A stretch of 64,000 nucleotides of DNA from NCBI RefSeq assembly GCF_003334815.1, contig NZ_QOWO01000016.1. One strand, 5' to 3'. Of this stretch, positions 35,517 through 35,684 are shown in pieces. Source of the DNA: Escherichia coli (GTDB lineage: Bacteria > Pseudomonadota > Gammaproteobacteria > Enterobacterales > Enterobacteriaceae). How positions within the stretch are numbered: position 1 is the first letter of the stretch; every line of letters begins with the position of its first letter. The translations under genes were made by a program, and so were the position numbers. The notes beneath the pieces were generated by a model. That model saw only the letters and a program-made list of their open reading frames with translations. It was not told where the DNA came from and ran no database searches.

Positions 35517-35684
35517 ATGAGTTTTTTTGATGAGTTGAAAACCTCTCTGGAAGAGGCTGTCGAGATTAAACAAGGTTTGAAAAAACCTGCACGGGTGACC
35601 CGCCACGAAATTGAGGATGCTAAGGCTGTTGTCGACCGGAAAAGGTGTTCACGCCGCATCCGGCATTCGGTGCTCAATGCCTGA
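35517..35684 (+). CDS. small ORF (55 aa) whose 3' end runs into a REP element; doubtful
   Basis: ATG 35517 with GAGG 8 nt upstream; C-terminal residues encoded by REP sequence. Confidence 0.2.
   Translation: MSFFDELKTSLEEAVEIKQGLKKPARVTRHEIEDAKAVVDRKRCSRRIRHSVLNA

Follow-up and report, generated by a model that had tools for sequence, protein, structure and literature searches.

In the HigB2/HigA2 system of Vibrio cholerae (PDB 5JAA, 5J9I, 5JA8), the gene for a RelE-like toxin comes first and that of its antitoxin follows immediately, and the antitoxin consists of an intrinsically disordered toxin-neutralising segment (residues 1–37) followed by an HTH domain of the HTH_3 type (residues 38–105) (PMC5416850, PMC8438204). 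The disordered segment folds on HigB2 into a helix (residues 3–22) and a strand (residues 28–32), and a peptide of residues 3–22 is by itself able to neutralise the toxin, with a Kd of ~3 pM (PMC5416850, PMC8438204). Here we describe a short open reading frame (ORF) in a 64,000-nt stretch of Escherichia coli DNA (hereafter the window, meaning the whole of that stretch) whose parent operon resembles this system in gene order, in its RelE-like toxin and in its two-part antitoxin, and which itself corresponds to HigA2 residues ~1–37. Unlike HigB2/HigA2, the window has neither a toxin gene nor an HTH domain, the ORF ends in a tail encoded by REP sequence, and its N-terminal identity to HigA2 is low.

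The second described system that the locus calls to mind is the REP/BIME family of E. coli, whose members are imperfect palindromes of ~35 nt with a Y or Z consensus and many dispersed copies, all of which is found here: the spacer that holds the ORF contains a hairpin-forming Y-Z-Y array between convergent genes. The locus departs from the usual picture in that a gene fragment takes coding sequence and its stop codon from one REP and part of another.

Lastly, orphan and chromosomal antitoxins have been proposed to serve as anti-addiction modules, as for the chromosomal ccd of Erwinia; those known are whole antitoxins for which cross-neutralisation has been demonstrated. The window is like them in that antitoxin-derived sequence has been kept without a linked toxin; it is unlike them in that the remnant is half a gene and one that is often inactivated. 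The reading that we hold with considerable confidence is that the ORF is what decay has left of a chromosomal type II toxin–antitoxin operon of the HigB2/HigA2 type and that it no longer has a function.

The Open Reading Frame and Its Neighbours

The genes of the region run in the order radA, nadR, a 307-nt spacer, ettA and slt. The nadR gene lies on the + strand (34251..35483; RefSeq annotation of an identical locus, tblastn identity 100%), and ettA lies on the − strand (35791..37458), convergent to both nadR and the ORF. The ORF occupies 35517..35684 on the + strand, begins with ATG 33 nt after nadR and ends with a TGA stop at 35682–35684; a Shine–Dalgarno motif, GAGG, stands at 35507–35510, 6 nt 5′ of the ATG. 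The start codon, the GAGG and the length of 55 codons all agree with what a preliminary description of this DNA had given. An 85-aa ORF on the minus strand (35420..35677), for which no lead to homologues emerged, overlaps the conserved + strand frame.

E. coli K-12 encodes the same 55-aa protein (RefSeq WP_000007444.1, “nadS, NadS family protein”), with two synonymous changes between the window and K-12 genes, and RefSeq/PGAP labels the identical 168-nt ORF nadS in strain SC516 and in K-12 derivatives. The protein also bears this name in O157:H7-like genomes and in many others. The NCBIfam model NF041265 (NadS) matches the ORF with 69.1 bits (curated cut-off 60; E 3.1e-19), and this match is restricted to profile positions 1–46 of 94 and so falls short of the full length; full-length NadS scores 182.6 bits over positions 1–94. 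True homology to the parent gene stops at 35627, the end of codon 37. The antitoxin-derived part of the ORF (codons 1–37, 35517..35627, + strand) is supported by the NadS profile, by alignment to a full-length allele, by a profile alignment to HigA2 and by the model of a fusion with the toxin described below.

These matches also bear on whether the ORF is a gene at all. The preliminary description had offered two readings, a gene remnant and a chance ORF. An ORF that arose by chance in a REP-filled intergenic region is not a strange idea in a neighbourhood where 5.5 kb hold 58 ORFs of 30 aa or more, and one third of this ORF is repeat; however, a family match of E 3e-19, a 5′ part that shares 95% of its nucleotides with a full-length gene of other strains and a native ribosome-binding site leave that idea with a negligible probability, and the homology and the alignment together effectively rule it out. 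The reading as the remnant of a gene is borne out by the same evidence. The comparison proposed at that time, on which a lack of N-terminal conservation in related genomes would speak against a remnant, has been run: the N-terminal 37 codons are kept in relatives, and the proposed test therefore does not refute it.

The Parent Gene

An intact E. coli allele (L002) has, in order, nadR, a gene for a 110-aa “RelE/ParE family toxin”, a gene for a 94-aa NadS, one REP and ettA. The 110-aa toxin matches the Pfam family RelE (PF06296) and is related to V. cholerae HigB2 (E 8e-16), and full-length NadS is related to V. cholerae HigA2 over residues 3–93 (E 1e-8, using a profile of 28 family members), with an HTH_3 domain at residues 35–79. 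This full-length NadS (L002 2010–2291) has as its second-best NCBIfam match NF007481 (PRK10072, a 96-aa “HTH-type transcriptional regulator”), which covers residues 6–91 and falls below the cut-off, and one source calls the protein “YiaG”; there may be another solitary HigA2-like protein in E. coli.

With full-length NadS as the query, 80 species loci were collected, and in 69 of them a HigB2-like toxin gene lies directly upstream of NadS and ends a few nt before its start. Relatives of the toxin were found on 871 plasmid records (PLSDB), with ~80% identity on 5-kb plasmids of Yersinia, Citrobacter, Hafnia and Pectobacterium. Escherichia contributes 34 plasmid records with any toxin relative, and only one exceeds 90% identity: NZ_CP134663.1 (E. 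coli, 4.9 Mb, toxin identity 98%). This record is evidently of a chromosome misfiled among plasmids, and the few “plasmid” matches for the nadR–ettA locus should accordingly not be taken for plasmid carriage. The partnership with a toxin in the species loci, taken with the plasmid relatives, identifies “NadS” as the predicted antitoxin of a mobile higBA2-type toxin–antitoxin module.

What, then, of the link to NAD that the name seems to promise? A bona fide small protein with a novel role tied to nadR or to NAD metabolism would fit the position of the ORF on the same strand as the adjoining nadR, the curated family name and the PGAP gene symbol, and its reported expression. The family stands beside nadR and ettA, however, in only one of the 80 species loci (Escherichia sp. 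MOD1-EC7003) and elsewhere has a RelE-type toxin as its partner; our literature searches found no paper that ties NadS to NAD; ~61% of E. coli genomes have a dead ORF or none; and the DNA-binding domain is missing. We consider such a role highly improbable. The name NadS reflects the neighbourhood of the gene in Escherichia and not its function.

Origin of the Window Allele

Pairwise alignment with the intact allele fixes the breakpoints of the window allele exactly. A segment of 395 bp (L002 1585–1979), which holds the promoter/operator and toxin codons 1–101, is absent from the window, and in its place stands the junction CCG (35484..35486, + strand), which is shared with L003. Directly after the junction comes the tail of the toxin gene (35487..35515, + strand), its last 8 codons and stop, within which lies the antitoxin's Shine–Dalgarno GAGG; this tail aligns to L002 1980–2008, the end of the annotated toxin CDS (1676–2008), and tblastn finds toxin residues 102–110 in the window and no other HigB2-like sequence there. 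Neither of the hallmarks of a type II toxin–antitoxin operon, a toxin gene immediately upstream and an autoregulated promoter of its own, is found in the window.

From the toxin tail onward, window positions 35487–35627 are identical to L002 1980–2120 at 134 of 141 nt (95%). The intact allele goes on with 205 bp (L002 2121–2325) that comprise nadS codons 38–94, the stop codon, a spacer and the single REP's left arm; the window has 139 bp of a three-REP cluster in their place (35628–35766), and homology to L002 starts again within the third REP, in its right arm. The ORF sequence is REP-derived from residue 38 or 39 on, and no HTH_3 domain is found in it. The preliminary description had put the REP-encoded part at the last ~15 codons and had suggested disruption by REP insertion: the C-terminus is indeed encoded by REP sequence, and the extent of this part is 17–18 codons, since homology ends at codon 37; the exchange of 205 bp for 139 bp is no simple insertion.

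Related alleles bear on the order of events. In strain 201609 (L003) the toxin deletion and its junction are those of the window and nadS is full-length, which suggests that the toxin was lost before the 3′ half of the antitoxin gene. In the same allele the one REP hairpin that follows full-length nadS contains the IS3-family element IS1397 (L003 3425–4870), a position that fits the known targeting of REPs by IS1397; full-length nadS alleles already have one REP downstream. In Escherichia sp. MOD1-EC7003 (L017) the toxin has been lost by a different deletion (L002 1595–1919), with ~90 nt of the toxin 3′ end left before an intact 94-aa nadS (L017 2399–2500); because the breakpoints differ, the toxin has been lost at least twice independently.

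An ancestor of E. coli thus very probably carried a chromosomal HigB2/HigA2-type operon in the nadR–ettA interval. A 395-bp deletion took the promoter/operator of the operon and the toxin gene save its last 29 nt, and in a second event the three-REP cluster replaced antitoxin codons 38–94, which encode the HTH DNA-binding and dimerisation domain. The reading frame has come to extend 17–18 codons into REP sequence, where it ends, and the fragment retains the native ribosome-binding site and ATG of the antitoxin.

The part that was kept is not uniformly conserved. Compared with full-length E. coli NadS, the remnant carries the changes E23K, Y30H, A33E, V35A and I38V, two of them at nearly invariant positions of the family, and all five fall within codons 23–38 (35583–35630); codons 1–20 are without any nucleotide difference. 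This cluster may reflect relaxed constraint at a former domain junction, or it may mark a recombination tract. Rare amino-acid variants appear to be fewer in residues 1–22 (5) than in residues 23–55 (~19), in a sample that is too small and too confounded by CpG-rich Arg codons to serve as a test of selection.

The REP Cluster

Three REPs on the + strand make up the cluster that supplies the C-terminus. The first is a degenerate Y-type REP (35631..35665), GTCGACCGG...CATCCGGCA, which encodes codons 39–50 (VDRKRCSRRIRH); it was recognised as a direct repeat (D1) and by its naRNA4 match, and it has 4 mismatches to the exact copy at 35747–35781. The second, a Z-type REP hairpin (35679..35713; inverted repeat I2, RNA fold), holds the last codon of the ORF and its TGA stop. 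The third, a canonical Y-type REP that is an exact copy (35747..35781), directly abuts the ettA stop codon, and its right arm is common to the single REP of the intact allele.

The repetitive character of this sequence is plain from its copy number: the exact Y-REP has 6 sites in the window versus 0 expected, and a query containing REP sequence has a median of 38 matching places per E. coli genome. The Rfam family naRNA4 (RF02564), which is REP-derived, matches 35634–35712 with 69.1 bits against a gathering score of 59.5. A structured RNA gene was considered as a candidate for this region and rejected; Rfam gave naRNA4 alone on both strands, and the strong RNA fold (z = −3.8) is due to the REP hairpins. 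A separate REP cluster lies elsewhere in the window (21254–21489), with three direct Y-type REPs at ~100-nt spacing, two of them exact and one with 1 mismatch.

Distribution among E. coli Genomes

A census of 5426 complete E. coli genomes places the window allele within a range of states. The 5′ end of nadS is present in 4610 genomes, the toxin gene (and with it the complete pair in the nadR–ettA interval) in 673 and the HTH-coding 3′ half in 730, so that ~3880 genomes (72%; 4610 − 730) have the 5′ fragment only. No trace of nadS is left in ~816 genomes (15%), as in L007, where the nadR stop runs straight into a Z-REP. The genomes with the toxin include ST131, E2348/69 and an APEC O1:K1:H7 strain.

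Toxin-less genomes fall into two groups according to the start of the ORF. The start region is intact (ATG and seven T) in 1096 + 340 genomes (~26%), which include K-12 and O157:H7, and all five intact-start alleles examined encode the 55-aa product. In 2496 genomes (46%) the ATG has become ATA and a 1-nt deletion has left one T fewer; this allele has lost its start codon and is frameshifted, and a product from the next TTG would miss the conserved F3 and F4. The allele counts come from three haplotype-specific short megablast queries and are approximate because of exact 28-mer seeding; the low-complexity filter apparently masks the T-run, and a query registers an allele only where the left 30 nt match exactly. 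The three haplotype counts and the toxin-bearing genomes together amount to 4605, versus 4610 genomes with any nadS 5′ end.

Further rearrangements are found at the same place. In L008 the REP cluster has collapsed to one REP. In L009 and L010 (E. coli MEW and MRSN346647) a gene island lies after nadR (~2720–5220), with genes for an aldo/keto reductase, an SDR oxidoreductase, an SRPBCC protein and a YdgH/BhsA-family protein; the island meets a nadS copy that has the dead start, and the breakpoint there (~codon 43) is a different one. The spacer between nadR and ettA is a hot spot of rearrangement.

As the dead-start and fully deleted alleles indicate, the remnant appears to be in the course of being lost. 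With 46% of genomes carrying a dead start and 15% nothing at all, there is therefore no species-wide requirement for it. At the same time, about a quarter of the genomes have an intact start and the window and K-12 proteins are identical, so some constraint on the ORF may exist in the intact lineages.

Expression

No sigma-70-like promoter was detected in the region scanned (35200–35900), and no + strand terminator was detected between nadR and the ORF. The simplest inference for a remnant with neither a promoter of its own nor an intervening terminator is read-through, and the remnant is therefore probably transcribed from nadR. There is also a report of translation: in a PIRT-Seq study of K-12 BW25113, nadS (RS26030) was detected by in-frame reporter insertions, that is, as a translated gene, and the authors regard this as the first laboratory evidence of nadS expression (PMC12350097). 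The text supplements of that study do not mention nadS.

Residual Function

Without its 3′ half the remnant is predicted to be unable to bind DNA, and no toxin is encoded beside it. What it has kept is the other half of an antitoxin. The point of truncation nearly coincides with the boundary between the two domains, such that NadS residues 1–37, equivalent to the whole neutralising segment, are retained; the equivalents of the HigA2 hot spots (F3, F4, L7, S10, L11 and E13) are intact and are the most conserved positions of the NadS family; and in the profile alignment NadS residues 3–18 fall on the HigA2 helix.

Structure prediction is in keeping with this. An artificial fusion of the E. coli toxin, a flexible linker and the 55-aa product was modelled with AlphaFold, with paired homologues as the alignment. 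Residues 1–30 of the remnant reached a pLDDT of 91–96, with a helix at 3–18 and a strand at 26–31, and the REP-encoded tail stayed below 50; the remnant alone gave a pLDDT of ~76, a pTM of 0.31 and no strand. By profile alignment and by AlphaFold, the N-terminal part thus has in silico the features of a HigA2-type neutralising segment, and the remnant is predicted to be structurally compatible with toxin binding, which, in an artificial fusion, speaks to compatibility and not to function.

It is from these observations that the main rival to a functionless relic arises, namely that the remnant is a functional orphan mini-antitoxin acting against HigB2-family toxins that arrive on plasmids or by recombination, and thereby weakening addiction. 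The retained segment with its hot spots would be the right part for such a task, given that the HigA2 peptide 3–22 suffices to neutralise HigB2; the fusion model orders residues 1–30 where the remnant alone has no strand; relatives of the toxin are carried on the 871 plasmid records; and the product is reported to be translated in K-12 (PMC12350097). The population data weigh heavily on the other side, however, since 46% of genomes have the dead start and frameshift and 15% have nothing; the toxin relatives in Escherichia are confined to 34 plasmid records, of which the sole one above 90% identity is evidently chromosomal; and the AlphaFold support comes from an artificial fusion and paired homologues. 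Free disordered antitoxin segments, moreover, are usually short-lived, being degraded quickly by proteases. We regard a working mini-antitoxin as unlikely.

The same low probability attaches to a fuller version of the idea, in which the truncation, whether by accident or by selection, would have turned the antitoxin into a peptide that neutralises toxins on its own, is constitutively co-transcribed with nadR and immunises K-12, O157:H7 and related lineages. If this were true, half a gene and a REP-encoded tail would have yielded an anti-addiction factor against HigB2-family toxins on mobile elements. The functionless remnant is the reading that we prefer.

Annotation and Significance

The ORF is already listed in databases as nadS, and its novelty is low. 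What the comparison adds is an identity for “NadS”, with the nadS of K-12 being seen as half of a higBA2 antitoxin gene. Both the gene symbol and the family name imply a link to NAD that is without support, and what was lately presented in K-12 as a small gene newly found to be expressed is half a gene. The locus also assembles within one species a series of stages in decay, from the full pair through loss of the toxin, loss of the DNA-binding domain and loss of the start codon to complete deletion, and it provides an example of REP sequence supplying the C-terminus and stop codon of an ORF.

The curated MG1655 record (NC_000913.3) has no feature at this locus. PGAP treats it inconsistently, with the 55-codon form called as a CDS in K-12 and O157:H7 and as a pseudogene with “missing C-terminus” (114 nt) in L011 and L014, and one UniRef entry for the identical protein bears the name “Lipid A biosynthesis protein”.
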